A stretch of DNA of 57,783 nucleotides, from positions 1 through 57,783 of the IMG/VR virus record IMGVR_UViG_3300045988_161144; one strand, 5' to 3'. Of this stretch, positions 28,714-49,641 are shown in pieces. The stretch is from a virus. A program made the position numbers and the translations under genes. Every line of letters starts with the position of its first letter. Positions within the stretch are counted from its first letter, which is position 1. Below the pieces are notes generated by a model. It had not been told where the DNA came from and ran no database searches. It saw only the letters and a program-made list of their open reading frames with translations.

Positions 28714-30023
28714 AATGCCATAACCTTAAATCTATCATTATTATCTGGGATATTTCTTGTTGGGCTTAATTGTCCGCGAACACCATAAACAGCATAACCT
28801 AAAGCATCCATTGCATGGTCATTGAATTTAACAGGTTCATCAAGAGTTACTCCGTCCTTATCAACTTTCCATTTGTATCCTTTAATTTCCTTAATTGTAT
28901 TGACACATTTTGGGTGAATATGGATTTTAGTCTGTTTCACAGTATTTATTTTAGCAGTAACATCTTTGATTCCACCCTCTGCGGCGAAATCATTTTGTCT
29001 AAACTCTTCAATATCGTCAGGATTAGCCTTATCACAACAAACCATATCCAAGGATTCGGGGAGCAGGTGGTGTTCAAACAACATATCCTTAGTCTTCTGA
29101 ATGAAATCACGATTAAGTAATTCTCTCTCATAAACTTCATCTAAAACATAGCATTCATTATCATACCAACCACATAAAAGGAAACAGGAAGGGTTGTTAA
29201 ATCCAAAATCAACACCACCAGTATAGAAATCGAATGAATCACGAAGAACAACAGTGTCATAATTAGGATAAATCACACCAGAAAGTTTACCCCATTTACC
29301 TGCACTATATCTTAACCATAAATCATAATCCACATTACGAAGATTATCATAATTAGCACGAGTTTCAGGTGGGAGATAATAATTCTCACTATAATGGAAA
29401 TGGGCGGTTTTACGATGCTCTTTCTTGTAAGCTAAATCCTGTTCAGCAGTAACCCATTCACCAAAACCATTATAGTGTGCACCAACATCATCATATAAAT
29501 GGTACTTTTTGTATATCCAATGTTCCTCAGATTCTGGTTGAACAACAAGTAACATTTGAGCATAATTTCCTGGTTTTCTACTTGCTTTACCCCTACCAAG
29601 CCTAAGTAATAATTCCTCATAAAATGCAGGGTCTTTAAGTTCCTCAGCCTGCTCAATATAAATCATATCAGCATTAATACTACGAACCTTTGATAGGGAA
29701 TCCAATGCACCAAAATAGAGTTTTGATTTATTACCGAATTCAATGAATCCTTCGGATTTGTTCTCGAAATATGGGATTTTCAAGTCATATAATAATTCAC
29801 GAATCTCCTTCCAACTGGTTCTTTTCAGGGAAGGTAAAGTAACACGATAAACATAAACACTCGCCATATCATTTTGCAATGCATAGAATATGGCTTTGTA
29901 ACATGCAAAGATGGTTTTGCCTGAACCAGCAGAACCCTCAATTAATAATTCACGACTCTTGTCATCAATCCACTCCATCTGAGTGTTCGTCATCTCCACA
30001 TTCAGGTTTACCATGTTTCTCAC
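28710..30023 (-). CDS. terL: Terminase large subunit (437 aa)
   Basis: Walker A GSAGSGKT, Walker B-like MIYIEQAEE, C-terminal nuclease-type acidic residues (GVDFG, DHAMDALGYA). Confidence 0.85.
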   Translation of the reverse strand: MRNMVNLNVEMTNTQMEWIDDKSRELLIEGSAGSGKTIFACYKAIFYALQNDMASVYVYRVTLPSLKRTSWKEIRELLYDLKIPYFENKSEGFIEFGNKSKLYFGALDSLSKVRSINADMIYIEQAEELKDPAFYEELLLRLGRGKASRKPGNYAQMLLVVQPESEEHWIYKKYHLYDDVGAHYNGFGEWVTAEQDLAYKKEHRKTAHFHYSENYYLPPETRANYDNLRNVDYDLWLRYSAGKWGKLSGVIYPNYDTVVLRDSFDFYTGGVDFGFNNPSCFLLCGWYDNECYVLDEVYERELLNRDFIQKTKDMLFEHHLLPESLDMVCCDKANPDDIEEFRQNDFAAEGGIKDVTAKINTVKQTKIHIHPKCVNTIKEIKGYKWKVDKDGVTLDEPVKFNDHAMDALGYAVYGVRGQLSPTRNIPDNNDRFKVMAL

Positions 30024-30438
30024 TCATTTTTGTAATATTGATGTTAATTTTGTTGGATTCTTCATCATTAGTTGAAAGTTCAACTTCTTGTCGATTATTA
30101 TATTTAAATCGTTTCTCAAGAAGGAATGCTGCTGCCTTCCAATCCCCTTCCACTTTAGCCTTATCAGTTACTACTGTTACTAAATCCATTTCAGCTTCAG
30201 CTTCTGCTTTAAGGATTGGTTCGAAGAATCTTTGGATTTGTGTACCAGTATATCCATGTTCTTGCTCCTCTTTCATCCATCTCTTCCAGTTACGATATGT
30301 GGAGTCAGCTATACCTGCTAAACCAGCAGCCTTCTCTACCCTTACACAACTCCTAACATATTTAGCAACCTTTTCACCCAATAATTCTGGACTCCTTGCA
30401 AGTTTCTTCGGTTTATGTAACTTATACTCTTCACTCAT
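29965..30438 (-). CDS. terS: Putative terminase small subunit (157 aa) with HTH-like segment (AGLAGIADSTYRNWKRW)
   Basis: Position directly upstream of TerL with overlap; HTH-like motif typical of TerS. Confidence 0.45.
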   Translation of the reverse strand: MSEEYKLHKPKKLARSPELLGEKVAKYVRSCVRVEKAAGLAGIADSTYRNWKRWMKEEQEHGYTGTQIQRFFEPILKAEAEAEMDLVTVVTDKAKVEGDWKAAAFLLEKRFKYNNRQEVELSTNDEESNKININITKMSEKHGKPECGDDEHSDGVD

Positions 30439-30465
30439 TCACACACCACCTTATAATCCCATAAA

Positions 30466-30753
30466 TTAATCTAATAAAATGGTTGCGGTTTTTATTATGA
30501 ATAATACTCCAGATAATCCAAAAATAGAGATTAATAAGTAGATTATTGACTTATATGTTCTTGCCACACTTGTGGTCTCCATCAATTGTAACTCTACACG
30601 ACTCAAGTGTTCTAATAAATCATCTAATTTATCATTGAAGCTATCTAATCGTGCCTCAATATCATTAATTTCGTACCTTTTATGTTTAATTTGTGTTTTA
30701 AGTTCAGCAATATCTGCCTCGTGACTACATTGGTGCTCAGGTGTCTGCTTCAT
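30466..30753 (-). CDS. Small membrane protein (95 aa): coiled-coil N-part, C-terminal TM helix; holin-like candidate
   Basis: Hydrophobic C-terminal segment IIYLLISIFGLSGVLFIIKTATILL. Confidence 0.4.
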   Translation of the reverse strand: MKQTPEHQCSHEADIAELKTQIKHKRYEINDIEARLDSFNDKLDDLLEHLSRVELQLMETTSVARTYKSIIYLLISIFGLSGVLFIIKTATILLD

Positions 30754-30904
30754 TCACAGCCTCCAAATTAACAACACGATCCTTAGCCAAGAAACCAATC
30801 AAACCACCAACAATAGTAGTTAAAACAGTTTCCATACCCTGAAACAAACTCAAAACACCAATAACAGTGATGCAAACAATTAAAATAGTAATATTATCCA
30901 CCAT
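30737..30904 (-). CDS. Small hydrophobic protein (55 aa, two predicted TM segments), not in supplied ORF track
   Basis: ATG (rc of 30902-30904), translation MVDNITILIVCITVIGVLSLFQGMETVLTTIVGGLIGFLAKDRVVNLEAVNEADT, overlaps downstream gene start by 17 nt. Confidence 0.3.
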   Translation of the reverse strand: MVDNITILIVCITVIGVLSLFQGMETVLTTIVGGLIGFLAKDRVVNLEAVNEADT

Positions 30905-30905
30905 G

Positions 30906-31700
30906 AAACAACCACAACCATAAAAAATATTATAAAAAAAATAACACCCTAACCATATACTGCACTATAATATTCCGAAGAATCAACCAATAAAACACCC
31001 TCACACATAAGTACCAACCCACTAAACAGGCAAAAATACTCATCATGATGATTATCATATAAGACAATATCATCAAAAACAAAAGGAAACCTATGATTAG
31101 ACACACAAAAATTCATCATACAAAAAAAATCCTATAAAAAAAATCATAATACAATATACATACACTATAATATGTCTTACCACATACGACCACAAACACA
31201 AAGAAACATCAGAAAAAAAATAAAAAACCAAAACAAAAAAGAATAAACACAATAAACACACACCAACATGAAAAAAATAAACACAACAATGTATGTCAAA
31301 TTTTGTGTTTTTGTTTTTGTTTTTTTGTGTTGTATTGTTTTTGTTTTTTTGTGGTGGTGGTGGTTGTTTGTAATTATTAGCAATTTTTTATTATTTTTTT
31401 AGTTATTTTTAGTTATTTTTAGCTATTGTTTATAGTTTTTAGTTATTATTAGCTGTTATTTATGATTATTAGCAATTTTTTAAGTATTAATAGCAATCAT
31501 TAAAGTAAAAATAGACGTTAAAATAAGAATAATAAGAATAATAAGGATAATAAAAGAATAATTAAGAATAAAAAAATAAGAATAATAAGAATAAAAAGAA
31601 TAAAAACAAACAATAAACAACAATAAAAATAATAAAAAGAATAATAATATGGATAATTATTATATATCCTATATTATTATGTATTGTGTTATGTTATGTT
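30906..31700. repeat. Low-complexity, strongly strand-asymmetric non-coding region. Blocks are G-depleted A+C-rich, then T+G-rich, then tandem TAGTTATTTTT-like repeats, then AATAAGAAT-like purine tract. Imperfect long palindrome centred near 31290
   Basis: Direct reading; switches of base composition; tandem short repeats; located just upstream (in transcription sense) of terS. Confidence 0.7.
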
Positions 31701-31714
31701 AGTGATCTGTTTTT

Positions 31715-32104
31715 TTATAATATGATTATATATATTAGTCCTATTATTAGTATAATATATAATAGTGTTCCTATTATTATTCTTATTGTGCTGTGTTCGT
31801 TGTTGTTTGGTTCTTCTGTTGTTTCTGCGTCTGTTGTGTTTGTATATATTGTTTCTGGTTCTGTTACTTGTTTAATATTTAGTACTGATTCTAAATAGGA
31901 ACATATATAATAGTATTGGTTAAAATTCATATCATATATTTTATAGATCTGTTTGCCGTTTTGATATATTGTCACTTCCTTAAAATATTCACTATGTTTA
32001 AATTTATATGTTTGTTGCTGGTTTAAGTTGCTTTCTAATATCCTTTTTATTGTTGTTTGGTTTACTGTTTGGGGGTTTCTGATGTTGTAGCCTTTAATTT
32101 TCAT
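31715..32104 (-). CDS. Tail-anchored membrane protein (129 aa)
   Basis: C-terminal hydrophobic stretch IRIIIGTLLYIILIIGLIYIIIL. Confidence 0.4.
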   Translation of the reverse strand: MKIKGYNIRNPQTVNQTTIKRILESNLNQQQTYKFKHSEYFKEVTIYQNGKQIYKIYDMNFNQYYYICSYLESVLNIKQVTEPETIYTNTTDAETTEEPNNNEHSTIRIIIGTLLYIILIIGLIYIIIL

Positions 32105-32116
32105 AATATTAAATCC

Positions 32117-32896
32117 TTATTTATAATTATTTATAATCTCTTGTAATTCTTCTATATTCTTAGCATATGATATACAATCAGGGCAATTATAACACAAATA
32201 ATTATTACAGACATTATAAATAAAGTCTTCTACCTCGTTTAATAATGTCTTGTCTTTATATATTTGTTTCCTTAATTTCTTATTTGTTATTATTTCCTTT
32301 AATGAATATTCATATTCGTAATAATTTTTTGGATCTGCTTTTATAGAATAATAATAATTTATATATTTATGATTCAGATTTGAATAATATAAACCGTCTT
32401 CCTCTATAAAGTCATCTGAGACAAATATTCCTCTTGGTGTTGCTACTGCCCATCTGCAATTTGTAGCTTGAGATAATATATCTATTCCTTGTTGGTTTGC
32501 TTTTATACCATTCCTATATTTTCTTATATATGTGGCGGTGTCGTTTAAACCTTTTTCAAGTGTTAAATTGCTTATGGTTCCATTCATAAAATATACTGGT
32601 TTTCTGCCTGTGTATTCTGTAATATTTGGGTTATTCTTCTTAAATGGGTGTGTCTGTCTTTTATTCGTGCTTCCTTTGCTGGTTATTCTAAAATGTACTA
32701 TTTTTTCATAATTCTTATTATTGTATTTCTTAAATTCTCTTAAAAATTCGTTAAATTTCATGAATCCTTTTTTATAATAAACTTTGCCATTTTCTATTAT
32801 GGCATATCCTCCTCCGTCTGGGTTTGTTTCCCATGCTTCTTTAAGTTCGTTTTCTTCTATTTCTGTTCCTATTTTTGAATAAATAATTATACACAT
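32117..32896 (-). CDS. Class-II (Ntn) glutamine amidotransferase-like protein (259 aa), N-terminal Met-Cys nucleophile
   Basis: Begins MCIIIY.. (Cys2 as in GAT-II enzymes); adjacent to amidoligase-like gene with only 2 nt between them. Confidence 0.4.
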   Translation of the reverse strand: MCIIIYSKIGTEIEENELKEAWETNPDGGGYAIIENGKVYYKKGFMKFNEFLREFKKYNNKNYEKIVHFRITSKGSTNKRQTHPFKKNNPNITEYTGRKPVYFMNGTISNLTLEKGLNDTATYIRKYRNGIKANQQGIDILSQATNCRWAVATPRGIFVSDDFIEEDGLYYSNLNHKYINYYYSIKADPKNYYEYEYSLKEIITNKKLRKQIYKDKTLLNEVEDFIYNVCNNYLCYNCPDCISYAKNIEELQEIINNYK

Positions 32897-32898
32897 AT

Positions 32899-33867
32899 TT
32901 AATATCTCCTTGGTCTGTAAATGTCTTGGACATATCTTTCTTCAATCTTGTTTCCTATCATACAAGTATTTTTATAGATAATTGTCTTTTTCTCAAATGA
33001 TTTAATATCGTCTAATATTTGAGTATTATATGATGATTCATTAAATTTATTTAAAAATTTTCTTAACATAGTGTTAGAATATCTTCTATTTTTACATATT
33101 TCAGTAACTTGTTTAATTGATAATTTATTACTGTAATTTATTAATTCAGCAATAAAATAGATCCTTGAGCCTATAAGCTCGTGGTCTGTTGATGCGGAAA
33201 AACCGCGATACTCTATAGTTTCGCTATGTTGTAGGTTTACTAAAACTTCGTGAGTTTCGTCGTCGTAATCTAAATATTCTAACATTTCAATAGCTTCTGA
33301 TACATAATCAATATTTTGACGGCACCATTTGTCCCAATCTTGGCGGTACCTACCCGATACTTTAAATAGGCACCTTTGCCACATGCTACATAAAACAATA
33401 AATTTACAAATGTTTTCTGTGCTGTCGTGGAACCAATCTATTATGTCGTAATGAATATGTAAACCGGCACCATTTCCGCCTTCTGCTGATATATTATATA
33501 ATAATTCTTCAGCTTTTTCTATTGTTTCATCAATATTTAATGCTGGGGTTATAAATTCTACTCCGTCGTTATCTATTATACTACCGTCGTAAGTAGCTAT
33601 AATATTTTTATAACTGCTCCTATATTGTTTAATGTTAATGTTTCCGTTTTTTACTTCGTTTAGTAAGCTTCTTAAGCTTACATAAGTTAATTCTATTTCC
33701 GCTCCTACTTTTTTAGTTGCGGTTTCATCTACAAATATATTATATGAATGATAGCCATATAAAAAATCGTTAAGGTTACAACACCTTAACAATATACTTT
33801 CATCAGTTATTCCCATATTATTTATTATTTCTCTATATACCATTTCTAACAACTCCTTAATAATCAC
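32899..33867 (-). CDS. Amidoligase-like enzyme (322 aa; glutamine-synthetase-like fold family)
   Basis: N-terminal VGAEIELTY and GGNGAGLHIHYD motifs resemble the amidoligase family signatures (G.E.E.. / G.H.H). Confidence 0.4.
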   Translation of the reverse strand: MIIKELLEMVYREIINNMGITDESILLRCCNLNDFLYGYHSYNIFVDETATKKVGAEIELTYVSLRSLLNEVKNGNINIKQYRSSYKNIIATYDGSIIDNDGVEFITPALNIDETIEKAEELLYNISAEGGNGAGLHIHYDIIDWFHDSTENICKFIVLCSMWQRCLFKVSGRYRQDWDKWCRQNIDYVSEAIEMLEYLDYDDETHEVLVNLQHSETIEYRGFSASTDHELIGSRIYFIAELINYSNKLSIKQVTEICKNRRYSNTMLRKFLNKFNESSYNTQILDDIKSFEKKTIIYKNTCMIGNKIEERYVQDIYRPRRY

Positions 33868-34048
33868 TACAATATAAATAATAAATGCCTTTTTCAGCGT
33901 CTTCTATGCTATTATACATTGTTTCTTCCCATTCAGTAAAAAAACAGCCTTTCCTATAACCTGAGTGTCTTTCATATATTATTCCTTTTTCTTCTTTGAG
34001 TTCAAATTTTGCATAATTTGTATTAATTATAAGTTGCATAATATACAC
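33857..34048 (-). CDS. Hypothetical small protein (63 aa)
   Basis: ORF overlapping start of amidoligase-like gene. Confidence 0.3.
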   Translation of the reverse strand: MYIMQLIINTNYAKFELKEEKGIIYERHSGYRKGCFFTEWEETMYNSIEDAEKGIYYLYCSDY

Positions 34049-34156
34049 CTTTTAATTTTTTTAAGTAATACTGTTGTACTACTCGTTACTCTATCTTATG
34101 TTCTATCTACTATTTATACTTTTTGGTTTTAGTGTGTGTTATGTTCTATATTATTG

Positions 34157-34221
34157 TTATTTTTCAGACGTTACTGTTAATGATCAACTTATTTATTTTT
34201 CAGACGTTACTGTTAATGATC
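34157..34221. repeat. Two tandem copies of 29-bp TTATTTTTCAGACGTTACTGTTAATGATC (period 36)
   Basis: Exact duplicate read directly. Confidence 0.85.
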
Positions 34222-34551
34222 CTATTTTTATATTATGATTTTTTTTATTTTCTGTCCTTGTTTTATATCTTATTTTAACACTTTATTTTAATTATTTTAC
34301 TACTTTTTACTTTAACTATTAATTTAATTGTGTGGTTCTTTAATTATTTTTATGGTGTTGGTGTTTTATTAGTTTATAGTATTGTCTTATCTATATTTAT
34401 TTGTTGATTTATTACAATTTCTTTAATTTTAATTTTATTTCATGATTTGTTTTTTATTGTGTCTGTTGCTGTTTGTGTTCGTGTTTTCTGTTGTTGCTTC
34501 AGCTTCAGCAATTGAATATATTATTATAGTTATTATATTCTTTATTGTGTT

Positions 34552-34580
34552 TATGCCTATTATGCCTATTATGCCTATTA
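34552..34580. repeat. Tandem 9-mer TATGCCTAT x3
   Basis: Read directly. Confidence 0.8.
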
Positions 34581-34677
34581 TTCATATTTTACATATTATC
34601 CACATTATATTATTTTAATATATTTTACTCATGATACAGATTATCCTGCGTCACTTACATTATATGGGTTTAGGTCT

Positions 34678-34872
34678 TTAATTCGTAGATGGTTCGGGGA
34701 TTTTTTTTAATTCGTAGATAAAATGGGTTTAATTCGTAGATAGATTTTAATTCGTAGATCATGTCCTTAATTCGTAGATAATTTATAAGTTTAATTCGTA
34801 GATGGTAAGAGTAATTTTAATTCGTAGATGGTAGATGGTTTTAGTTTACAAATAATAGTTTAATTCGTAGAT
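34678..34872. repeat. Array of eight direct 13-bp iteron-like repeats TTAATTCGTAGAT with irregular spacing (starts 34678, 34707, 34729, 34747, 34767, 34791, 34817, 34860); several extend to TTAATTCGTAGATGGTAGATGG
   Basis: Exact copies read directly in non-coding region; variable spacers 5-30 bp. Confidence 0.85.
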
Positions 34873-35485
34873 GGTAGATGGTTTAATAAAAAGATGGCTC
34901 TCCTTTAAATACTTCATTAATCAAAATTAATTATTAGAGGTTTATTAAAATTAATGTTTGAGGATTAAAATAACACGAACATAATATGTGATGGTTTTTT
35001 ATGAATTATCCAGTTTTCCCCAGCATATATTATGTTATCCAATATATTCTTCTAATTAATTTTAAACATATATTATAAATCATAAGGATTTAATGATTTA
35101 GCTCAACTCTATTATATTAAAACACTTGTTCATATTATATTAGACCTTTCTGTACATTGTTAAAAACGGGTATGACTTATAGGATAATCCAACATAATAT
35201 TAATAGATTAATTAAACCTCTAAAACAAATATTAGATAGTATAGGATTATCTAATGTGTCTTGTGTATTCAAACATTACATGAACTATTATCCTATTATA
35301 GAATGTGTGAATATTTAATTCTTGAATAAGATTATGTGATGGTATAGGTTTATTGTCTAAAGATATTCTTCATAATAATAATTTAACGGTCCCAAATTCC
35401 CATATACTGCGTATATGGGAGTTATTGTTATTATTATTGGCTTATTTTTTAATTCTGACATTTGTTCTTTTTAGATAATTAATCT

Positions 35486-35525
35486 ATATTGTCATATGAT
35501 CGCCTCCTATTGAATATGACAATAT
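35486..35525. terminator. Perfect 12-bp inverted repeat ATATTGTCATAT / ATATGACAATAT with 16-nt spacer, followed by T-rich tract; hairpin or operator
   Basis: Read directly. Confidence 0.5.
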
Positions 35526-35699
35526 TCTTTCTATTTTACTGTTTTTGTAAGTAGATTTGGATATGTTTTATTTTATATCGGATTTTTTATAGGTGTGTGT
35601 TGAATACTTATTTTTGTGGTTGATTAGGTTAGTTATTGTTGTATGTAATCATGTTTTAGTTTAGTTTTTAGATGATTATTTTTGTGTGTTTTATGTTTT

Positions 35700-35880
35700 T
35701 GTTTGTGTTATTTTTTCCATTTCCAAATCCATTTTCATTTTCATTTCCATTTCCATTTCTAAACTTGTTTTCATTTCCATTTCCTTTTTCAATCCCATTC
35801 TTATTTCATTTTTCATTTCTAATCTCATTTCCAAATCCATTTTCATTTTCATTTCCATTTCTAATTTTGTTTTTTTTGAA
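35700..35880. repeat. Block of degenerate TTCCATTT / CATTTTCATTTCC repeats including a roughly 38-bp unit present twice
   Basis: Read directly; ORFs over it translate to FPFPF / EMEMK low-complexity peptides. Confidence 0.7.
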
Positions 35881-36283
35881 TAGTTGGTGGGTGGAAAATA
35901 CCTTCCACCAATCTTCGCTTTGCACTTCAAATTCACTTCAATATTCGTGACAAAAAGGATTCTCTATCCTTCTTTTTTAAATTAGAGTATTATTTATATA
36001 TATTTATTGTTGAGAAGAAGGACTCTGGGGGGTATAAGAAGACTTTTGTTTTTATGTTTGTATAGTATAAAACAATACTATAATGAAAGTAAAATATACA
36101 CTCTCCTTTAAATACACCTATAATACAAATAAAGATATGAGATTAGAGAGAAAAAAAGAAAGTAATATGTGAGGCATATTTTTATAAATATGTTTCACAA
36201 AATTTTCCTAACAAAAAATATCTCATCTAATGATTAACAAACATAAAAAAGTAATAATAACTATACCTTGGAGGTGACAAACC

Positions 36284-36484
36284 ATGACTACTACATTACC
36301 TTTAGCACCAATCCGTAGAATAATGACTGAAGCAGGGTGTAAAAGAGTATCTGAAGATGCAGTAGCATTAATGGCTAAATATGCTGAATCAGCAATCTAC
36401 GAAGTTAGTGCAGAAGCAAAACATGCAACTGAACATGCTGGTAGAAATACTGTTCGTGTAGAAGATATTGAATTTGTAATTTAA
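36284..36484 (+). CDS. Archaeal histone (HMf/HMfB family, 66 aa)
   Basis: LPLAPIRRIM.EAG..RVSEDA ... HAGRNTVRVEDIEFV closely parallels HMfB [22 protein letters not shown] ... HAGRKTIKAEDIELA; RBS GGAGGTGA 6 nt upstream. Confidence 0.9.
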   Translation: MTTTLPLAPIRRIMTEAGCKRVSEDAVALMAKYAESAIYEVSAEAKHATEHAGRNTVRVEDIEFVI

Positions 36485-37143
36485 TATTTTCTCCATATAC
36501 ACCCATTTTTTAAGTATTTATGATTAGTCTACTATTAATGTTTTTTCTTATAATCATTGTCGTTCATTTTTTCATTATTAGTAGACTACTGATAAATATT
36601 TTATTACTAATGTCTATATTGATCTTTCTGTGGATTTGACAATATTTTTTCATCTTATTTTGATATTGTTAATTCCACACTCATTTTCTTTAATGATTCA
36701 TTTTTTTATAATTACTTTTTTTATAAACTATTAGAAAAACAATAAGTTTTATATAGTAGAATAAATAAATAAAATTTCATGTAAAAAAAATTATTAAATA
36801 ATATCCTTCGCAACATAGAACCATCAACTATTCTTAAATTCTCATATATACACCGTACTAATTTGTCTTCGTCGTAACAATTCTGAGAACACTCCATACT
36901 TTATTGTCTTTATGAGGCATAAATGAAGTGCCTTCAACTTTTCACAATATAGGTTGCACGAAACATTTTCAGATAATTTTTTTAAAAATAAGCCTTCTCC
37001 ATCAAGATAATCAAAAAGTATTATTAGAACTCTGAAAAGTATTATAAAAATTAAATAGAAACTATTATATAGTAGAAAGAATATAGTAATATTCGAGAAG
37101 CACAAATAAGTGTACTCAAAAAAACAACAAGGAGACAAACAAA

Positions 37144-37974
37144 ATGAAAAACAAAAACATAAAAACAAAAATAAAAGAATTAGAAAACAATGAAATATAC
37201 ATTGACAAATTCAATAAAGGATTAGTCATCTACAACAACAAACAAGAATATGTCATACCAGATTTGATGAGGAAAGTCACAATAAAACATGGAATAGAAA
37301 AAACCACCTTCAATCAGGAAGAACTAACACAATTATTCCTAAAACATAAAGTTTATGAAAAAATAACATCAGCAGATTACAATAGAGTATTAACTGAATA
37401 TGAATTCATAAAACAAAACATTCCAGACACATATGCATCAAAACATAAAACACCTTTCAAAGAAGCAAAAGAATATGCATTAAACTATTATATTAACAAC
37501 GAATATGTTCCAGGAGTATTGGAAAACACATTAAATATATTAGAATATTATCCGAGCATATATAATTTGCCATTGAAAGGATTCCATTACAAATACAATT
37601 ATGTCGCACAAATACTTGAAGACTACAATGTAAATCGTTTTGGGAACATCACAAAACCATTATACAATAAAACCTTCGCAGTATTAGAACATAATACAGA
37701 TACATTAATATTAAATAAATCTGGAAACAAAATAATAAATGGTGTAATATACAAAAATTCAATCAATGCTCCAAACCTACTCATGATATTATGGGGTAGA
37801 GCATATGACAATATAATGAATGATCCCAAAGTACAATATGGGTACAAATATAATCAAGAACCAGACACATACCAAGTAGCAGATTTCACTGGTTGTTTAA
37901 ATCAAATTAATGAATTATATGGTAAAGATAAAGTTGTATGTGATTTTAGAATTAACAGAGGAGTTGGATTATGA
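37144..37974 (+). CDS. Hypothetical protein (276 aa), lysogeny-region candidate
   Basis: Six-frame ORF following histone gene, translationally coupled to next small ORF. Confidence 0.4.
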   Translation: MKNKNIKTKIKELENNEIYIDKFNKGLVIYNNKQEYVIPDLMRKVTIKHGIEKTTFNQEELTQLFLKHKVYEKITSADYNRVLTEYEFIKQNIPDTYASKHKTPFKEAKEYALNYYINNEYVPGVLENTLNILEYYPSIYNLPLKGFHYKYNYVAQILEDYNVNRFGNITKPLYNKTFAVLEHNTDTLILNKSGNKIINGVIYKNSINAPNLLMILWGRAYDNIMNDPKVQYGYKYNQEPDTYQVADFTGCLNQINELYGKDKVVCDFRINRGVGL

Positions 37975-38117
37975 GGAGAATGACTAAAAATTTAGTTGTA
38001 TATGTTGAAGATTATAATGAATTGAATAATATCAAAATCAGTTCTTCAGAAACATATGATAATGTAATTATTAGAGTATTAAATGAGGTGGAGAATCGTG
38101 GCAAAGAAAGAAACTAA
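37971..38117 (+). CDS. Small RHH-like protein (48 aa), not in ORF track
   Basis: ATG overlapping the stop of the upstream gene (ATGA); beta-strand-then-helix pattern NLVVYVEDYNELNNIK. Confidence 0.3.
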   Translation: MRRMTKNLVVYVEDYNELNNIKISSSETYDNVIIRVLNEVENRGKERN

Positions 38118-38496
38118 AACTATCAAAATATCGATTGAAGCATACACGAGATTAAAACATTGGAAGAATATTGATGAATCTAATCCTCAAGCAATGCATA
38201 GGTTGCTTGAAGAATATAAATCATATGTTCATATTGAGAGTCAGGAATATGTTGTTGATTATAAAGACACATCACTTCATTTTAAAGTTGTGGGTGATGA
38301 ATTAAAATATTATCATGTTTCCGAGGATAACTGGTGGAGTTCTATTGATGCATGGGTTGATGTAGCAAATGGTTTCCATTATGTGGAAATCATTGATTTT
38401 TTCAAGAATTTCTTGTTGAAGGAATCTGCAATGATTTTACTTAAGGACATGGGTGATGAATTAGTTTATGGAGATTATATTATCAGGAAATTATAG
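38083..38496 (+). CDS. Putative DNA-binding regulator (137 aa) with RHH-like N-terminus (KTIKISIEAYTRLKHWK)
   Basis: RBS GAGGTGG upstream; RHH-like motif. Confidence 0.4.
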   Translation: MRWRIVAKKETKTIKISIEAYTRLKHWKNIDESNPQAMHRLLEEYKSYVHIESQEYVVDYKDTSLHFKVVGDELKYYHVSEDNWWSSIDAWVDVANGFHYVEIIDFFKNFLLKESAMILLKDMGDELVYGDYIIRKL

Positions 38497-38546
38497 TAAA
38501 TATTATATATTATAGCTGATATAATAAATACTATGATTATTTTTTG

Positions 38547-38565
38547 AGTGTTTTAGTGAAACACT
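38547..38565. terminator. Hairpin AGTGTTT-TAGTG-AAACACT flanked by T/A tracts, between regulator gene and int
   Basis: Perfect 7-bp stem read directly. Confidence 0.35.
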
Positions 38566-38648
38566 ACTAAAAAAATCATAGTGTTCAAGAATACTTTTCA
38601 AATGGGGTCTTGGACAATATAAATGTTTAGTGGATACAAATTATATCT

Positions 38649-39722
38649 GTGATAAATATGGTTTTCGAACAATTCGTACAAGAACGAAACTTATCAAAAG
38701 AAACAAGGCGGAGATATAAAACAATATTAAAAAAATATGCCTTGTTCAATGATATGAGTTTGGAAGAATTGTTAGATGAAGCAGACAAAGAAGAAATCAA
38801 AGGAGTAAGATGGAAAAATAGAAAACTCAAAACAAGACTAATTGAATTTAGAAAATATTTGTATAATTCATTAAGGTCATCAACTGCAAAAATGTATTTT
38901 ATAAGTGTAGTATCATTTTACAGGCATTTTGAGATAGAAATCCATAAATTACCTTCAACAAGTAATGTGAATGTTCATTCACCTGAACCAGTAGAGTTTT
39001 CAGATATTCCCACAAAAGAATTACTTCAAAAAGTGATAAACGAATCAAAAAACAATACATTCAGAACAGTAATATATTTCATGTCAAGTACAGGATTAGC
39101 AATGATTGATACATTAAATTTAACTGTTAAAGATTTCCTTACTGCATGCAATGTTGAGAGTATTGATGAATTAGATAACTTATCAGAATATGTTTCCACA
39201 TTCAAATTAAAACGGAGGAAAACTGGAAAATATTTCTATACATTTGCAACACCTGAAACAACAAAACAAATAATAAATTATATCCATTCAAAACCAAATG
39301 TGAACGTGGGTGATAAATTATTTGATATAAGTGCAGATTACTTATACCAACTGTTTCGAAAAACAAATGATAGATTAGGTAAAGGTAGAAAAAATAATCA
39401 GAGTTTGTTCAGAAGCCATATGTTAAGGAAGTATCATGCAACAACATTACTCAATTCTGGTTTGACTCTTGAACAAATAGATGCTTTACAAGGTAGGAGT
39501 AAGGAAATTACTCACCAATCATATTTTCTTGATGATCCCAAAGTTTTGAAAGAAATTTATATGGAGCATATGGATAAATTAACCATATTTGGAGATAGTG
39601 AAGAAATACAGGAATTAAAGGAGAAAAATCGAGAATACGAGGAGAAATTTGTGGAACAAGAAGAATTAATTAAGGAAATTGTTGAAGCACAGGAAAAATT
39701 AGAGAAACTATTGGAACTCTGA
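38649..39722 (+). CDS. int: Tyrosine integrase / site-specific recombinase (357 aa)
   Basis: N-terminal core-binding-like region; catalytic motifs R (RTVIYFMSSTGLA), H-x-x-R (FRSHMLRKYHATT), and C-terminal GRSKEITHQSY with Tyr. Confidence 0.85.
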   Translation: MINMVFEQFVQERNLSKETRRRYKTILKKYALFNDMSLEELLDEADKEEIKGVRWKNRKLKTRLIEFRKYLYNSLRSSTAKMYFISVVSFYRHFEIEIHKLPSTSNVNVHSPEPVEFSDIPTKELLQKVINESKNNTFRTVIYFMSSTGLAMIDTLNLTVKDFLTACNVESIDELDNLSEYVSTFKLKRRKTGKYFYTFATPETTKQIINYIHSKPNVNVGDKLFDISADYLYQLFRKTNDRLGKGRKNNQSLFRSHMLRKYHATTLLNSGLTLEQIDALQGRSKEITHQSYFLDDPKVLKEIYMEHMDKLTIFGDSEEIQELKEKNREYEEKFVEQEELIKEIVEAQEKLEKLLEL

Positions 39723-39960
39723 TTCAAATAATTATTGTTAAGTTATGTTAGGCAACCACTCCGTAACATGACTATAATTATATGAACTTCGAGTTCCAAG
39801 ATTTCATTGAGACAAACAAAATAAATGGAAGATATTTTTTAAAAAAAAAGTATCTTTTACATAATATTTTGTGTAAAATCACTCACCCGCATCAGATTTA
39901 AGATTGGGTTGAGCATATTTTATTTTGTTGTTTTCATGTATTTATAGTTTTTTCTAATTT

Positions 39961-39982
39961 TTGTGTGTTTCACAACACACAA
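39961..39982. promoter_or_regulatory. Perfect palindrome TTGTGTGTT-TCAC-AACACACAA about 120 bp upstream of the first gene of the rightward operon; candidate operator
   Basis: Read directly. Confidence 0.45.
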
Positions 39983-40104
39983 CCAAAAGATTTATATACT
40001 ATAAAGAACATAGTAATATACAAGAACAGAAAAGTAAAGGGAAAAACAACCACAAAAAAATTTCCCAAAACAGAAAACTGTTCCTAAAAAAAGGAGGCAA
40101 ACAA

Positions 40105-40266
40105 ATGGAAGAAATAACCTATAAAGGAGAACATGGAATCTTCATGACTCATGAAGAACGAAATGACTTGTTCTCATTAATAAAAAAACAATCCGACTTA
40201 GCAAAACAAGCAATGCAAAAATCTGAAGAAACAATCAGAGAGTGTAAAAATGAGTTGGCTAAATGA
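40105..40266 (+). CDS. Small protein (53 aa)
   Basis: ATG preceded by RBS AAGGAGG; the longer track ORF starting at 39961 lies over the palindrome and is unlikely. Confidence 0.35.
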   Translation: MEEITYKGEHGIFMTHEERNDLFSLIKKQSDLAKQAMQKSEETIRECKNELAK

Positions 40267-40636
40267 GATCGACAATTGCATCAAAACATCAGATGCAAAA
40301 ATCGAATTTCAAAAAAATGTTGTAGAAAAACAAGAATCCAACATTCAAAGAAAAAAAACCTGCCAACCAAGAATAAAACAAGCAAAAGCAGTAAAACAAT
40401 TAATCAGAAATATTGATTACAAAAGAAAAACAGCACTTGTCGAATCTAAGGCAGGGAAGGTTTACCCAGTAATATTAAGTGACCAAGCATTAGCCAAAAA
40501 TGTCACAGAAACAGATCTGGCAATTGTTAAAAAAGTCAATGGTTACTGGATAATGATAGATGTTGAAAAACCAATGAAAATGGATTCATCAACAGCAGAA
40601 TTATTTGATGAGGGATATGAATGGTGTCAATATTAA
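40250..40636 (+). CDS. Hypothetical protein (128 aa)
   Basis: ORF in tightly packed plus-strand operon. Confidence 0.4.
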   Translation: MSWLNEIDNCIKTSDAKIEFQKNVVEKQESNIQRKKTCQPRIKQAKAVKQLIRNIDYKRKTALVESKAGKVYPVILSDQALAKNVTETDLAIVKKVNGYWIMIDVEKPMKMDSSTAELFDEGYEWCQY

Positions 40637-40857
40637 TTAAACTAAGTAACTGGATTGATATTCATAGGAAACGAAAACTGAAAACAAAACAACCAATAAA
40701 AATAAGAATAAATAATTGGGTTATGAGGAACTTTGGATTCCTATTATTATTAATAGTCTTCCTAATGCTCATATTATTCATGATTTTCAGTTTCCAAATA
40801 GTAGGAGCATCATTAGAATCAGGCAACTATTATAACCATTTAGGTGATGTAATATGA
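40621..40857 (+). CDS. Small membrane protein (78 aa)
   Basis: TM segment FGFLLLLIVFLMLILFMIFSFQIV. Confidence 0.35.
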   Translation: MVSILIKLSNWIDIHRKRKLKTKQPIKIRINNWVMRNFGFLLLLIVFLMLILFMIFSFQIVGASLESGNYYNHLGDVI

Positions 40858-41150
40858 TGAGAAGAATGGTTAAAAGACACTTCCCATTAGCTACACCTAT
40901 TGAAATTAAAAAAATAATTTCATTAAGTGAAGCAACAAATCCTAAAAGATTAGATGAATGGTTAAATGATTATATCTACATTACAATAGAAGAATGCTAT
41001 GATAGATATGATGACTTATTAACAACCACATATGATGATTGGGTGGATAATTTCCAACCATATCAAGTAATAGAGCAATTGGCAGAAGAACAAAAATTAC
41101 CACTTATTTATTTAAGTGAAAATGCATTTTTATTAAATGTAAAAACATGA
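40854..41150 (+). CDS. Hypothetical protein (98 aa)
   Basis: Overlapping start/stop with neighbours. Confidence 0.4.
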   Translation: MMRRMVKRHFPLATPIEIKKIISLSEATNPKRLDEWLNDYIYITIEECYDRYDDLLTTTYDDWVDNFQPYQVIEQLAEEQKLPLIYLSENAFLLNVKT

Positions 41151-41168
41151 AAAAGAGGAGTTAAAAAA

Positions 41169-41420
41169 ATGGGAAAAAATTCATTAATGGACCATATAAT
41201 AATGTCTGAACTGATGAAAACAGAAATGGCTATGGCGTCATTTTCAAAAGAACACATAATCGAAACATTAGAACATATTATTGAAACAATCAAAAAAATT
41301 GATGAAGAAGATAGTCTCGCACTTGCAAGTGCAGGTCAATCAATGAGCAGTACTGGAAATATGATAGCAATAGCTGGTGTTAAAAAATACAGGAACAAAA
41401 TAATCAGAGAAAGGAGTTAA
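41169..41420 (+). CDS. Small protein (83 aa), tandem paralog of 41425..41676
   Basis: Shared pattern IIETLE..I..I..D......A..G..M...G...A.KK. Confidence 0.4.
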   Translation: MGKNSLMDHIIMSELMKTEMAMASFSKEHIIETLEHIIETIKKIDEEDSLALASAGQSMSSTGNMIAIAGVKKYRNKIIRERS

Positions 41421-41424
41421 AATA

Positions 41425-41676
41425 ATGAATACTAATAATATTGAAAATAATATAGATGAATTCATATCTATGAATAATTTATTAAATTTAATGATGGCAG
41501 AACAGAACTTTAATAAAAAAGACATAATTGAAACATTAGAAAATATGGCACAAACCATAAATGACATAGAAGATAATGATTATGCTACATTAGGCATTGC
41601 AGGAACAGCAATGATTGATATTGGTCAATTATTAGCAACAGTAGCAATAAAAAAAATTAGTGGGGACAAACAATGA
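41425..41676 (+). CDS. Small protein (83 aa), tandem paralog of 41169..41420
   Basis: As above. Confidence 0.4.
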   Translation: MNTNNIENNIDEFISMNNLLNLMMAEQNFNKKDIIETLENMAQTINDIEDNDYATLGIAGTAMIDIGQLLATVAIKKISGDKQ

Positions 41677-41993
41677 GTGAAAGAGCATTATTAAATACAC
41701 TAAATTCAGCAATAGTTGAAGCACATACAGAATACATTAATGCAAAAAAAGAATATTTAACTGCAAAAAATAATCTTGCAGAAGCAGAGGCACAAATAAG
41801 TTTAACAGATAAAGAAACATGGAAAGACATAGGCATCACAAACCAAGCAGGAAGAGATGCATACATTAGACAACAAACAAAACAACTACATGATAAACTT
41901 AATCAGGCAAGACTTGCATTAGATTACTGTGAAGTGCAAGCACAGTATCAGGAAAATAAACTAAAAATATATCTTGTAACAACAGAGGAATAA
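41673..41993 (+). CDS. Coiled-coil protein (106 aa)
   Basis: ORF, overlapping stop/start. Confidence 0.4.
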   Translation: MSERALLNTLNSAIVEAHTEYINAKKEYLTAKNNLAEAEAQISLTDKETWKDIGITNQAGRDAYIRQQTKQLHDKLNQARLALDYCEVQAQYQENKLKIYLVTTEE

Positions 41994-41994
41994 A

Positions 41995-42300
41995 ATGACA
42001 AAATATGTTGGAACAGCATTCAGTATGCAAATGATTCAGGGTGGAGTAGGTTTGCTTGAATATTGCCAAATATCTGAAGAAACATTCAGAAAACTCGTTC
42101 AAGGAGCAGTATCCTTTGTAGGACACAAGGACATGGCAGAACACCTTGGAGTACCAGTGAATCGTGGAAACCTTATACTTGAAGATGGAGATGTACTATA
42201 TCTTGCCCAGAAATGTAATGGGAGAAATGGTTCAAATGCTCCACCTGAAGATGTGGAAATCAAATATTATCAAATATTTAATGTAGGTGATAAATTATGA
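41995..42300 (+). CDS. Hypothetical protein (101 aa)
   Basis: ORF in operon. Confidence 0.4.
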   Translation: MTKYVGTAFSMQMIQGGVGLLEYCQISEETFRKLVQGAVSFVGHKDMAEHLGVPVNRGNLILEDGDVLYLAQKCNGRNGSNAPPEDVEIKYYQIFNVGDKL

Positions 42301-42953
42301 GTAGGAAACAAAAAGTAACTGAACCTATGATAATACAAAATGAACATGGTAATGTTTTAGCAGAGTATTCTCCAGAATTATTATCCACAATAAAGAATAC
42401 TGTGGCTAAAGGAGCAACTAATGAAGAATTATATATGTTTCTTCAAATAGCATCAATGTATGACCTCAATCCTTTCTTGAAAGAGATATGGTTTACAAAA
42501 ATGAAAGATGAGGTTGCAATCATGACCAGTCGTGATGGTTATGCTAAAATTGCTAAAAGAGATCCCGAATTCAAGAAATGCCAATCCATGGCTGTGTTTG
42601 AAAATGATGTTTTCAAAACCAAACTTGAAATGGGTGAAGTGGTTGGTATAACTCATGAATTTGGTCAGAATGACCGAGGCAAACTTGTAGGTGCATATGC
42701 AATATTAATAACCTACAGTGGTGGAAAATTATATTCCTATGTTGATTATAGAGAATATGATAAGAGAAATTACATCTGGAAGAACTATCCTACGGCAATG
42801 TTGAGGAAAGTAGCTGAAAATGATGTATATAAAAGATTTGCAAATATCAATGGTATCTCAACCATAGAAGATATGCCTTCTGGATACGCTGATTATGCAA
42901 TTGAAAATGAAATTATTGAGACAAACAAAATAAATGGAGATGGATTAGAATGA
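42297..42953 (+). CDS. Putative RecT/Redbeta-like single-strand annealing protein (218 aa)
   Basis: Central ELYMFLQIASMYDLNPFLKEIWF resembles RecT-family core (....GLdP......y.i); C-terminal TAMLRKVAENDVYKRF resembles RecT tail; unverified. Confidence 0.4.
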   Translation: MSRKQKVTEPMIIQNEHGNVLAEYSPELLSTIKNTVAKGATNEELYMFLQIASMYDLNPFLKEIWFTKMKDEVAIMTSRDGYAKIAKRDPEFKKCQSMAVFENDVFKTKLEMGEVVGITHEFGQNDRGKLVGAYAILITYSGGKLYSYVDYREYDKRNYIWKNYPTAMLRKVAENDVYKRFANINGISTIEDMPSGYADYAIENEIIETNKINGDGLE

Positions 42954-43507
42954 ATTATTCTGAAGATTTTGAAATAAGTGATGTGACTAATGAAAGAGAT
43001 GCAGGTAGTGTATTTGATGAATTCGGTATTGAACCAGAGTTTGTTGAAGAACAGACTGGAGGTATTGAAATACCATTCGATTTCAATGTAACTGAATTGA
43101 AAGATGCATATGATGGGGAATATCTTCAAGGTAAACCATATTTGTCTGATGTTATTGAATATGATTATGAAGACAAAGACACAGGTGAGAAAAAGAAAAA
43201 CACTTACTGTGAATTAGTTCTGATTGATTCTGATGAAAAAGAAGCATATAAAATTAGAATTAATCTAAAATCAGATAAGAATGTACAGGAAAATGTACAT
43301 AAATCATCTAAACTCTATGCATTAGTTGTAGGATTAATTAACTTAAAAAATAAAGGTGTATTTAAAAATTATAATCATCTTAAAAAAGTTAATTTAGACA
43401 ATATTAGAAATATTGTGAGCGGGATTGATGATTTAACTGTTAAAGTTAAAGAAGTTCAATCAAACAATTTCTCATATAATACATTTGTAATCGTTGATGA
43501 TGAATAA
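42950..43507 (+). CDS. Acidic hypothetical protein (185 aa)
   Basis: ORF coupled to neighbours. Confidence 0.4.
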   Translation: MNYSEDFEISDVTNERDAGSVFDEFGIEPEFVEEQTGGIEIPFDFNVTELKDAYDGEYLQGKPYLSDVIEYDYEDKDTGEKKKNTYCELVLIDSDEKEAYKIRINLKSDKNVQENVHKSSKLYALVVGLINLKNKGVFKNYNHLKKVNLDNIRNIVSGIDDLTVKVKEVQSNNFSYNTFVIVDDE

Positions 43508-45222: not shown

Positions 45223-45533
45223 ATATTTTGATGTATATGATAGACTATAAAAACCTCAAAAAAAACATGAAGCAGAAAAGGATTGACAATCTAAAAACCA
45301 ACTACTCAATCCAACGAACATGCTTCTACAATGAAGGCAATGGGCATGAACTATGCCCACACAAAACTAATTGTTTACTAAACGAGGAAGTATCAACAAT
45401 CCTCAACGAAATAGATACTCTCAAAAAAGAATCATATAATTTAAACGAGTTATCTAAAAGAAAAAATTATTATAAAATAAAAAAATTAGAAGAAAAATTG
45501 AGACAAACAAAAACAATAGCTGGAGGATATTAA
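45219..45533 (+). CDS. Small Cys/His-containing protein (104 aa)
   Basis: ORF; CFYNEGNGHELCPHKTNC cluster. Confidence 0.35.
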   Translation: MNILMYMIDYKNLKKNMKQKRIDNLKTNYSIQRTCFYNEGNGHELCPHKTNCLLNEEVSTILNEIDTLKKESYNLNELSKRKNYYKIKKLEEKLRQTKTIAGGY

Positions 45534-45535
45534 AT

Positions 45536-45709
45536 ATGAAATTCAATCTTGTAGAAGGAGAATCTCATAATTCAAAATACCATAGATTTGTAGAATATTA
45601 TAATTCTAACAAATCATGGAGAGAAATAACAAAAGAATTCACAAAACAAATGTCACAGAAATTATACACTGAAGCAATCGAGAAAAAAGATATTGAGGCA
45701 AGATTGTGA
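45536..45709 (+). CDS. Small protein (57 aa), not in ORF track
   Basis: ATG with RBS GGAGGA 8 nt upstream; stop overlaps GTG start of next gene (GTGA). Confidence 0.3.
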   Translation: MKFNLVEGESHNSKYHRFVEYYNSNKSWREITKEFTKQMSQKLYTEAIEKKDIEARL

Positions 45710-46437: not shown

Positions 46438-46946
46438 TAAACATGAAAGTATTATTAATCACAGGTGAAAGCGGAGTGGGTAAAACCACATTCGCAAAAC
46501 ACCTAAAAGAGAATTATAATTATAATATAGTTCACAGTTACACAACAAGACCAAAAAGAGATGAACAAGATAATGACCACATATTCATATCAAAAGATAA
46601 GGCTTATGAAATGATGAATAATGAGGAAATTGTAGCACATACACAAATAAATAAAGAACATTACTTCACAACAGTCTTTGATTTTAAATTAGATCGTCCT
46701 AATGCATATATTGTTGATGCAAAAGGGGTTAAAGATGTTAAAAAAAATTGTCCAGAATGGGACATTACAGTATTAAAAGTAATAACTAATGAAAATCATG
46801 TTTCAAAAGATAGGTTAAAAAGAGACATAGCAATTCCTGAAGATCATGAATGTGATTTGATATTAGAAAGAAAAGTTATCCACAAATATTATCTCACAAA
46901 AAAGAATGTCCGAATCCCTAAACCAAATTGGGTTGATGTATTATGA
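46434..46946 (+). CDS. Guanylate-kinase-like nucleoside monophosphate kinase (170 aa)
   Basis: P-loop GESGVGKTT and guanylate-kinase signature SYTTRPKRDEQDNDHIF. Confidence 0.6.
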   Translation: MINMKVLLITGESGVGKTTFAKHLKENYNYNIVHSYTTRPKRDEQDNDHIFISKDKAYEMMNNEEIVAHTQINKEHYFTTVFDFKLDRPNAYIVDAKGVKDVKKNCPEWDITVLKVITNENHVSKDRLKRDIAIPEDHECDLILERKVIHKYYLTKKNVRIPKPNWVDVL

Positions 46947-48252: not shown

Positions 48253-48258
48253 TGCTCA

Positions 48259-48661: not shown

Positions 48662-48662
48662 A

Positions 48663-49621: not shown

Positions 49622-49641
49622 AAAAATGAGGGGATTATAAA

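Follow-up and report, generated by a model that had tools for sequence, protein, structure and literature searches.

A divergent HMf-family histone gene in the integration region of a temperate tailed virus of Methanobrevibacter smithii

The viral DNA analyzed in this study, IMG/VR record IMGVR_UViG_3300045988_161144 (57,783 nucleotides (nt); hereafter the window, meaning the whole of this stretch), carries a gene for a protein of 66 amino acids (aa), which is almost certainly a functional, virus-encoded archaeal histone of the HMf family. The window is the complete excised or replicating genome of a virus, not a provirus with flanks, and the virus is a terminase-and-portal tailed virus, temperate and integrating in Methanobrevibacter smithii chromosomes. 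The reading that we prefer, and place somewhat short of an even chance, is that the protein would be an intracellular histone variant that shapes viral, and possibly host, chromatin.

Results

The 66-aa HMf-family histone that an earlier note on this DNA had read at positions 36284-36484 was borne out by the open reading frame (ORF), by matches in Pfam and in the Protein Data Bank (PDB), and by AlphaFold2 (AF2) and Foldseek. The protein matched PF00808 (CBFD_NFYB_HMF) over residues 4-65 with 55.6 bits (E=6.6e-15), the Pfam gathering score for this family being 21.4 bits, and phmmer against the PDB matched HPhA, HMfA, and HMfB at E=4e-13 to 3e-12. The AF2 model, built from an alignment of 45 sequences, had a mean pLDDT of 89.2 and helices at residues 7-16, 24-51, and 59-65, namely the short helix, loop 1 (L1), long helix, loop 2 (L2), and short helix of the histone fold. 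The top Foldseek matches of the model were HMfA, HPhA, and HMfB (TM 0.86-0.90, rmsd 0.8-1.4 Å). The viral histone is a single domain, and its best matches are the archaeal HMf, HPhA, and HMt histones.

The window begins and ends with the same 79 nt (1-79 and 57705-57783, an exact repeat), indicating a circular assembly of approximately 57,704 bp. The tailed-virus and mobile-element genes in the window include those for a large terminase, RecT, a nucleotide kinase, a thymidylate-synthase-like protein, a dCTP deaminase, an ERCC4 nuclease, and an integrase, and a weak pseudomurein-binding repeat in one further protein speaks for a Methanobacteriales host. ORFs of 1021, 1020, and 1766 aa at 1493-13129 (-), downstream of a 2250-aa putative tape-measure gene, and a further ORF spanning the circular junction (57035-57724, -) probably encode tail-fibre or adhesin-like proteins.

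In the public collection, 474 indexed blocks contain the exact 66-aa protein; the contigs reach 1.56 Mb in length, and on them the histone was always beside the same viral genes. At NCBI the protein is WP_400255463.1, "histone family protein [Methanobrevibacter smithii]", on 260 contigs, and a second allele, WP_215670560.1, is on 274 contigs. In L001 and L004-L009, whose host flanks differ from one another, the homology between the window and its integrated copies ends past the histone, at a junction near 38559. This end falls between the 137-aa ORF and the integrase, so that the histone lies within the provirus, 2.1 kb from its right end. The host genes past the junction vary by contig (Glycos_transf_4, rubrerythrin, MazE/PIN, or a UvrD-like gene), suggesting more than one integration context or the insertion of other elements beside the provirus, and one host-flank protein is 91% identical to an M. 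intestini protein. No tRNA genes were found in the window or at the junctions. The megablast search of window positions 30000-50000 against INPHARED gave no match among the deposited phage genomes, and the virus is distinct from the M. smithii provirus MSTV1, which measures 38.8 kb.

This genome type bears directly on one function proposed in the earlier note, the packaging of viral DNA. The protein would then condense the DNA in the virion as in Marseilleviridae and Medusavirus, where the giant-virus histones are packaged and essential. As terminase-driven packaging in a terminase-and-portal virus threads naked DNA into a preformed head, the histone is not expected in the virion; moreover, one dimer per 30 bp would add a mass approximately that of the 57.7-kb genome, and the gene lies outside the structural module. 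We consider a virion role very improbable and the least likely of the functions proposed in that note. In the intracellular role that we prefer, the histone would not be a virion component.

A comparison with host histones, as the earlier note had proposed, was made with the three M. smithii ATCC 35061 sequences Msm_0213, Msm_0844, and Msm_1260, taken from the datasets of Stevens et al. 2020. These are only 38-42% identical to the viral histone, whereas they are 54-88% identical among themselves and 59-66% identical to HMfB of another genus. A HMMER search run exhaustively over 1.84 billion cluster representatives returned one close cluster, followed by fused double histones at E=9e-14; the single-domain histones outside its own cluster followed at E=1e-10 or weaker, with identities of at most 51%. 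No more than three 90%-identity clusters came from a word-seeded search (98%, 89%, and 89% identical), and in a profile search, among the matches listed (120) outside its own cluster, identity was 41-52%. Judged by these identities, the viral histone is not a recent host copy.

The gene was intact in 13/13 fetched loci. Comparison with the divergent lineage (L002, L003) gave 8 synonymous and 7 non-synonymous differences (dN/dS ~0.24, Fisher p=0.007), and the close copies showed 0 non-synonymous against 1-3 synonymous differences, except for a single A37T in L001. Further, the coding sequence (CDS) is 92.5% identical to that of L002, compared with 80-85% for the non-coding flanks. These data indicate that the histone gene is under purifying selection.

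The earlier note had itself raised the doubts that the gene might be a recently pseudogenised host fragment or might lie in a host flank included in the window. Both can now be set aside: the gene is full length in the 13 fetched loci and in 17 protein variants, with the low identity to host histones given above, and the contig is circular, its homology with the integrated copies running 2.1 kb past the histone. A related concern is that the gene is carried as a neutral passenger or belongs to the host and was mis-assigned, as might be thought from the NCBI entry, where the protein is just a histone of M. smithii, and from the viral contig L014, which does carry a host-like histone. The circular contig, the fixed junction past the gene, the 38-42% identity, the purifying selection, and the occurrence on hundreds of contigs all argue against this explanation, which appears highly improbable.

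In a crude neighbour-joining tree, the window histone fell outside the cellular Methanobacteriales cluster and beside P0009 (77% bootstrap), the deeper groupings being unsupported, whereas the L014 histone (8001-8192) grouped with Msm_0213 and Msm_0844 at 100% bootstrap and is either a recent host capture or host flank inside a viral contig. These placements indicate that both recent host-like and old divergent viral copies exist. We do not claim a supported clade of viral histones, as mobile-element and cellular histones score alike (~50 bits) and only the pairing with P0009 is supported.

Residue-level features of the viral histone

The residues of the viral histone were compared by alignment to HMfB and by their frequencies among 195 single-domain histones, and HMfB numbering is used unless the residue is called viral (HMfB R10, R19, R52, T54, and D59 are viral R12, R21, R54, T56, and D61). 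P4, A6, P7, R10, G16, R19, S21, A24, A43, H49, A50, G51, R52, T54, and D59 are kept. The earlier note had described the DNA-binding loop motifs as intact, which is correct for R10, R19, S21, R52, T54, and D59 and needs amendment for L2, which reads RNT instead of RKT, and for K13, which is T. The DNA-anchoring viral R12 and R21, the R-x-T of L2, and the viral R54-D61 clamp occur in the viral variants with essentially no variation, apart from a K for R21 in a single variant. The hydrogen-bonded H49/D59 tetramer contact (viral H51, D61) is kept, and G16 of the stacking interface (viral G18) is present and invariant; with G16 and H49-D59 retained, DNA wrapping by tetramers or short oligomers is still to be expected.

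The alignment also showed altered L46/L62 contacts and substitutions in the dimer core. At DNA-facing positions, K13T (1%), K45H (0.5%), and K53N (1%) are rare among the single-domain histones, as are L46A (4.6%) and L62F (3.6%) at the tetramer contact. The dimer-core positions A24, L28, L32, I39, and A43 are occupied by viral A26, M30, A34 (or V), V41 (or I), and A45, and in the helix-2 core L32A (6%) is paired with G36I. L32A occurs with a bulky residue at 36 in 9/12 histones against 16/183 of the others (p=4e-7), and bulky residues at 62 accompany A46 (p=0.003), both statistics ignoring phylogeny. The first pairing suggests re-packing rather than loss of the dimer core, and together the paired substitutions suggest compensated, self-consistent interfaces and not damage.

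Among the 17 protein variants, it is mainly the central part of α2 that changes, and there is little or no variation at the signature positions: C17, K18, A46, H49, N53, and F62 do not vary, position 13 is T in 15/17 and A in 2/17, and position 45 is H in 15/17 and N in 2/17.

The criteria proposed for hypernucleosome formation comprise L46, H49, D59, and L62, a small residue at G16, and three stacking pairs (Henneman 2018, PMC6136690). Of the stacking pairs (K30-E61, E34-R65, and R48-D14), only the first remains, as viral K32-E63, and 2/3 are lost: position 34 is S, the chain stops at HMfB residue 64 and has no residue 65, and the 48/14 pair is viral E50/E16, with A50 in the divergent lineage. 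This loss predicts a less compact or shorter oligomer.

Such changes could also belong to a dominant-negative anti-histone, which would enter heterodimers, poison hypernucleosome growth, and decondense host or viral DNA in the manner of a capstone. The loss of two stacking pairs and three lysines and the changed L46/L62 contacts are in line with it, and in M. smithii the host paralogs heterodimerise and capstones exist (PMC7776873). However, capstones are marked by a position 49 that is acidic or hydrophobic (Stevens et al. 2020, PMC7776873), and the viral histone keeps His there (viral His51), invariantly in all variants, so that its classification as a capstone variant was rejected. In addition, L46A/L62F and L32A/G36I look like compensated pairs that preserve self-interfaces. 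A dominant-negative action is improbable on this evidence.

The same compensated interfaces would fit an "orthogonal" lineage of mobile-element histones that pair with themselves, the virus building its own chromatin on its own DNA. Such chromatin could mark or shield the viral DNA, or could serve as a unit like integration host factor (IHF) for the integrase and attP. We regard this as unlikely, and less so than the dominant-negative action.

Organization of the histone locus

The features of the locus are listed in Table 1. The histone gene looks like a stand-alone unit with a ribosome-binding site (RBS), a conserved upstream hairpin, and an oligo-T tail. The strong RBS mentioned in the earlier note was found again, 6 nt before the ATG, and the repeat scans agree with its description of the upstream non-coding region as repeat-rich. 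Its statement that the gene starts an operon stands less firmly: the status as first gene is not clear, and the oligo-T run and 660 nt without a called gene follow. Conservation against L002 drops to 50-78% over 36560-36750, the minimum of the locus, after which comes the well-conserved upstream region of the next gene; from the oligo-T run and this partly poorly conserved gap, the histone gene looks monocistronic.

Table 1. Positions of the histone gene and of the features around it in the window.
Feature	Position	Strand	Basis
Iteron array, at least 8 copies of TTAATTCGTAGAT, irregular spacing of 26-113 nt	34677..34891	.	Repeat families D2, D6, D9; TRF
Degenerate TTTCCA hexamer array, ~25 units, period 6 and 30	35714..35861	.	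TRF, repeat family D1, blastn break points
Promoter-like box CTCTCCTTTAAATAC with TATA-like TTTAAATA	36101..36115	+	Direct-repeat family D3; second copy 34898-34912
13-bp inverted repeat, arms 36168-36180 and 36187-36199	36168..36199	+	Hairpin scan; 85 nt upstream of ATG
Ribosome-binding site GGAGGTGA, Shine-Dalgarno-like, perfect	36270..36277	+	Read from sequence; GAGGTGA kept in L002, L003
Histone CDS, HMf family, 66 aa	36284..36484	+	ATG-to-TAA ORF, Pfam, PDB, AF2, Foldseek
Oligo-T run T6, candidate archaeal terminator	36506..36511	+	22 nt past stop codon
29-nt inverted repeat I2, 36512-36540 / 36573-36601	36512..36601	+	86% complementary, 32-nt loop, right after T6
Three genes between histone and attP: 276-aa ORFan, 48 aa, 137 aa	37144..38496	+	ORFs
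Provirus/host junction, attP core region near GAGTGTTTTAGTGAAACAC	38543..38565 (~38559)	.	Homology ends here in 9 integrated or partial copies
Tyrosine integrase	38649..39722	+	Pfam Phage_integrase 27.5 bits (cut-off 27.1), Phage_integr_3, PHROG 1 2e-15

All relatives share a conserved stretch of approximately 420 nt upstream of the histone, which starts at a recombination junction (~35860). The CTCTCCTTTAAATAC box in this region is a putative promoter, by comparison with the archaeal TATA consensus. A similar TAATATGTGA element follows each CTCTCCTTTAAATAC copy, at 34972-35000 and 36153-36181, and there may be two similarly regulated plus-strand units, the histone being one of them. A sigma-70 promoter scan, which is not applicable to an archaeal host, showed no enrichment.

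The 151-nt leader folds with z=-3.7. In the 6 distinct sequences of the 13-bp inverted repeat, 100% of the cells are standard RNA pairs, and all variation, at 4 pairs, is a switch of A-U and G-U through a change in the 5' arm, with a loop that differs between lineages and no double compensatory changes. Variation of this kind fits an RNA hairpin on the plus strand better than a symmetric protein site, and the inverted repeat is a candidate leader RNA hairpin or operator. A role as a dispersed operator was rejected, as the palindrome at 36168-36199 has no second copy elsewhere in the window. The inverted repeat after the oligo-T run could be a terminator or a regulatory hairpin. An Rfam search (E up to 1) of 33800-38700 gave no match.

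The 2.4 kb upstream of the histone holds no convincing gene, only iterons and the TTTCCA-type array. The TTAATTCGTAGAT array is a candidate origin or regulator-binding site. The TTTCCA array ends at the ~35860 junction and is unaligned in the L002 lineage; it gives spurious ORFs on both strands (e.g., 35691-35936, 'EMEMKMKM'). At the same junction, a variable cassette of ~1.27 kb is present in L005, L006, L008, L009 (8301-9573), and L002 (5673-6379) and absent from the window, L001, L004, and L007; its products are proteins of 126-130 aa, 136 aa (DUF7557), and 86 aa (TrmB-like). A 29-nt sequence, TTATTTTTCAGACGTTACTGTTAATGATC, is perfectly repeated in direct orientation at 34157-34185 and 34193-34221, with a spacing of 36 nt.

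On the other side of the histone, the 276-aa neighbour has no Pfam or PHROG match and only two homologous clusters, with none known outside the virus group, and its AlphaFold model made without an alignment (pLDDT 33) was unusable. The 48-aa and 137-aa ORFs (37971-38496, +) come just before attP; the 137-aa protein has a weak VapB_antitox match (E=0.0014, below the cut-off), and both proteins look ribbon-helix-helix (RHH)-like, that of 48 aa by eye, and are candidate excisionases or repressors. PHROGs contains no family for the histone or its neighbours. The histone gene sits in the integration and regulation region of the virus.

Elsewhere in the window, an Amidoligase_2 gene, followed by that of an 'MC...' protein (Ntn-amidotransferase-like by eye), and the genes for the nucleotide kinase, the thymidylate-synthase-like protein, and the dCTP deaminase are found at 32117-33867 (-), 46434-47605 (+), and 52901-53431 (+). 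In bacteriophages, such gene sets accompany DNA base hypermodification. Because the virus carries ThyA-like, dCTP-deaminase, kinase, and amidoligase genes, its histone could, as a further form of the unlikely orthogonal reading above, be adapted to chemically modified viral DNA.

Histones on other mobile elements

The nearest relatives of the viral histone, too, are carried by viruses or other mobile elements. Nine IMG/VR contigs carry HMf-like histones that are 34-42% identical to the viral histone, some of them beside a dCTP deaminase or terminase gene. Two IMG/VR contigs of the virus itself break in the repeat region before the histone gene. Peptide-pattern scans for the histone in IMG/VR and in the GTDB species-representative genomes found nothing, and tblastn with the viral histone and with a host histone found no HMf-like histone in INPHARED (50,697 deposited phage and archaeal-virus genomes).

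The histone P0018 of contig L023 is 45% identical to that of the window, shares A32, I36, and A46 with it, and is a stand-alone gene directly after the integrase. L023 (8525-11170) is an unrelated, virus-like Methanobacteriales contig with a GC content of 26% and a pseudomurein-binding lysin; a tRNA-3'-like string, GGTTCGAGTCTCAGCAAGACCA, lies ~880 nt downstream of its histone and is probably its attP. P0009 (L026 793-11014) is 47% identical, and its contig (GC content 48%) also carries three TnpB/OrfB_IS605 genes and, of type IV CRISPR, the genes Csf1 and Csf3. L029 is a further mobile element with a histone beside integration or early genes, like L023 and L026, and P0300 is on a contig with a GpA-type terminase. 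The histone of the M. jannaschii 58-kb extrachromosomal element (ECE; NC_001732) is 39% identical. P0015 shares the MTTT N-terminus, on a contig of 515 bp with no gene context, and L016 (7556-7977) has two adjacent HMf-like histone genes in tandem (tblastn 7556-7747 and 7786-7977).

Discussion

According to the mechanism that we propose, the viral histone would dimerise and would bind and bend DNA non-specifically through L1 and L2 (R10, R19, S21, R52-T54, and the R52-D59 clamp). The substituted surfaces (K13T, K45H, and K53N; L46A with L62F; and the stacking pairs) would give weaker or shorter stacks and possibly looser DNA binding. Apparently expressed from its own regulated unit beside the integration and regulation module, the protein would act inside the cell as a histone variant; its target would be the viral DNA in the proviral, episomal, or replicating state and possibly the host DNA too. 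Assembling alone or mixed with host histones, it would form looser and shorter complexes than the host hypernucleosomes, and the accessibility of the viral DNA could thereby be tuned for transcription, replication, recombination, and terminase packaging.

Several points weigh against this proposal. Everything beyond the fold and its conservation is inference, and a weaker binder cannot simply displace the host histones. The re-packed α2 core (L32A/G36I) could favour self-pairing over heterodimers with host histones. A lower DNA affinity is itself not certain: in usual histones, a salt bridge links K53 to E18 in the partner chain, and in the viral histone the pair at 53/18 is viral N55/K20, non-K53 co-occurring with K18 (p=0.007), so that the positive charge may have moved to loop 1, with K20 offsetting K53N. 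The net charge of the window histone is -2 (pI 5.6), in the lowest 6% of single-domain histones, and ranges from -2 to +1 across the variants; low net charge was rejected as a fixed trait, since the variant P0003 is +1. Furthermore, 0/80 IMG/VR loci with related terminases (30-100% identity) have a histone within the fetched flanks of up to 10 kb, and this set includes syntenic relatives at 63-70% terminase identity, which indicates that the histone is accessory and dispensable for this virus type.

The place near att is also in keeping with a gene for lysogenic conversion, with the host as target. In such a role, the histone expressed from the provirus would act mainly on host chromatin or on incoming foreign DNA; it would alter host gene expression or hinder superinfecting viruses or CRISPR spacer acquisition. 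Going by its title, a 2023 paper by Watts reports that CRISPR spacer acquisition is directed by histones in one model archaeon. Prophage morons usually sit near provirus ends, and the histone is a stand-alone unit 2.1 kb from such an end as well as an accessory gene missing from relatives, with the related histone of L023 lying between an integrase and a tRNA-like attP remnant. However, a 66-aa paralog must compete with three abundant host histones, and nothing in the sequence points to host-specific targeting. Lysogenic conversion is rather unlikely in our estimation, albeit the first among the alternatives.

A location in the repeat-rich integrase and att region would also suit an architectural cofactor, comparable to IHF, Xis, or Fis with lambda integrase or to accessory proteins that bind origins: a dimer or tetramer that bends attP or the iterons for the integrase or the replication complex. 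The protein is small and predicted to bend DNA, the 30-nt repeat period adjoins its gene, and a related histone is immediately beside the integrase in the unrelated L023. However, the two RHH-like proteins nearer attP are more conventional candidates for an excisionase or regulator, only the non-specific DNA contacts are kept in the histone, and the histones of other viral contigs are in nucleotide-metabolism or early modules and not beside an integrase. We rate this role as unlikely, between self-pairing orthogonal chromatin and dominant-negative action. The preferred role remains that of an intracellular variant acting on viral, and possibly host, chromatin.

Archaeal histones are the best model for the origin of nucleosome-like DNA wrapping. 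To our knowledge, the effects of viruses on host chromatin in histone-bearing archaea are essentially unstudied, and experimental characterisation of virus-encoded histones is confined to the giant viruses of eukaryotes, the histones of archaeal viruses being known to us from a metagenomic survey only. In the present case, human-gut samples have yielded hundreds of M. smithii contigs with the provirus, the host is cultivable, and in M. smithii the provirus MSTV1 and chromatin proteins are already under study. As the viral histone is small and easy to express, the role of archaeal-virus histones becomes approachable in a cultivable host. Its substitutions at positions thought to set DNA affinity and oligomer length are a natural experiment on those rules, and the protein offers a handle on virus-host chromatin conflict in archaea.

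Histones of this kind are already known from the survey of tailed viruses, from Borgs, and from the M. jannaschii element, and NCBI names the protein a histone. Archaeal-virus histones are unmentioned in the M. smithii virus papers PMC11375127, PMC9800368, and PMC13573593 and in the viral-histone review PMC9145170. What is new in the current study is the assignment of a widespread "fourth histone" of M. smithii to a specific 57.7-kb provirus, together with the depth of its divergence from the host histones, its fixed interface substitutions, and its place as a stand-alone unit beside the integration module.

Comparison with known systems

The viral histone resembles the HMfA/HMfB-type histones, including Msm_0213 and Msm_0844, in length class, in the lack of tails, in fold, with an rmsd of ~0.9 Å, and in key residues (R10, G16, R19, S21, H49, A50, G51, R52, T54, and D59). 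It differs from them in being virus-encoded and only 38-44% identical, and in K13T, K45H, K53N, L46A, L62F, L32A/G36I, E34S, and R48E. The net charge of -2 compares with +2 for Msm_0213, +3 for Msm_0844, and -1 for the capstone Msm_1260. The capstones Msm_1260 and Msp_0383 (PMC7776873) are likewise minor, divergent paralogs of the same host genus with a predicted effect on oligomerisation, but they are chromosomal, vertically inherited, and acidic or hydrophobic at residue 49, whereas the viral histone keeps His49.

Among viruses, archaeal-like histones have been described in Caudoviricetes predicted to infect Methanobacteriota in a 2024 preprint by Liu et al. (bioRxiv 10.1101/2024.12.06.627149), an IMG/VR-based survey with no experiments on the archaeal-like group. 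Those HMf-like histones are also single-domain proteins on tailed-virus contigs with predicted Methanobacteriota hosts. The nine IMG/VR loci of this type recovered here have histones 34-42% identical to the viral histone. As the contigs of the present virus in IMG/VR break before the histone, its lineage is probably not in that survey.

The M. jannaschii 58-kb ECE (NC_001732) and the Borgs also have histone-fold genes on archaeal mobile elements, but these are plasmid-like or giant elements and not an integrating tailed virus. The Nucleocytoviricota (Marseillevirus, Medusavirus) share the virus-encoded histone fold; theirs are eukaryote-like H2A/H2B/H3/H4 doublets or sets that form nucleosomes in virions, whereas the viral histone described here is an archaeal single domain. 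Mobile-element copies of host nucleoid proteins are also represented by TF1 of phage SPO1, a homologue of HU, and by Sfh of plasmid R27, a homologue of H-NS. With these, the analogy is functional only, as their folds are unrelated and their hosts are bacterial.

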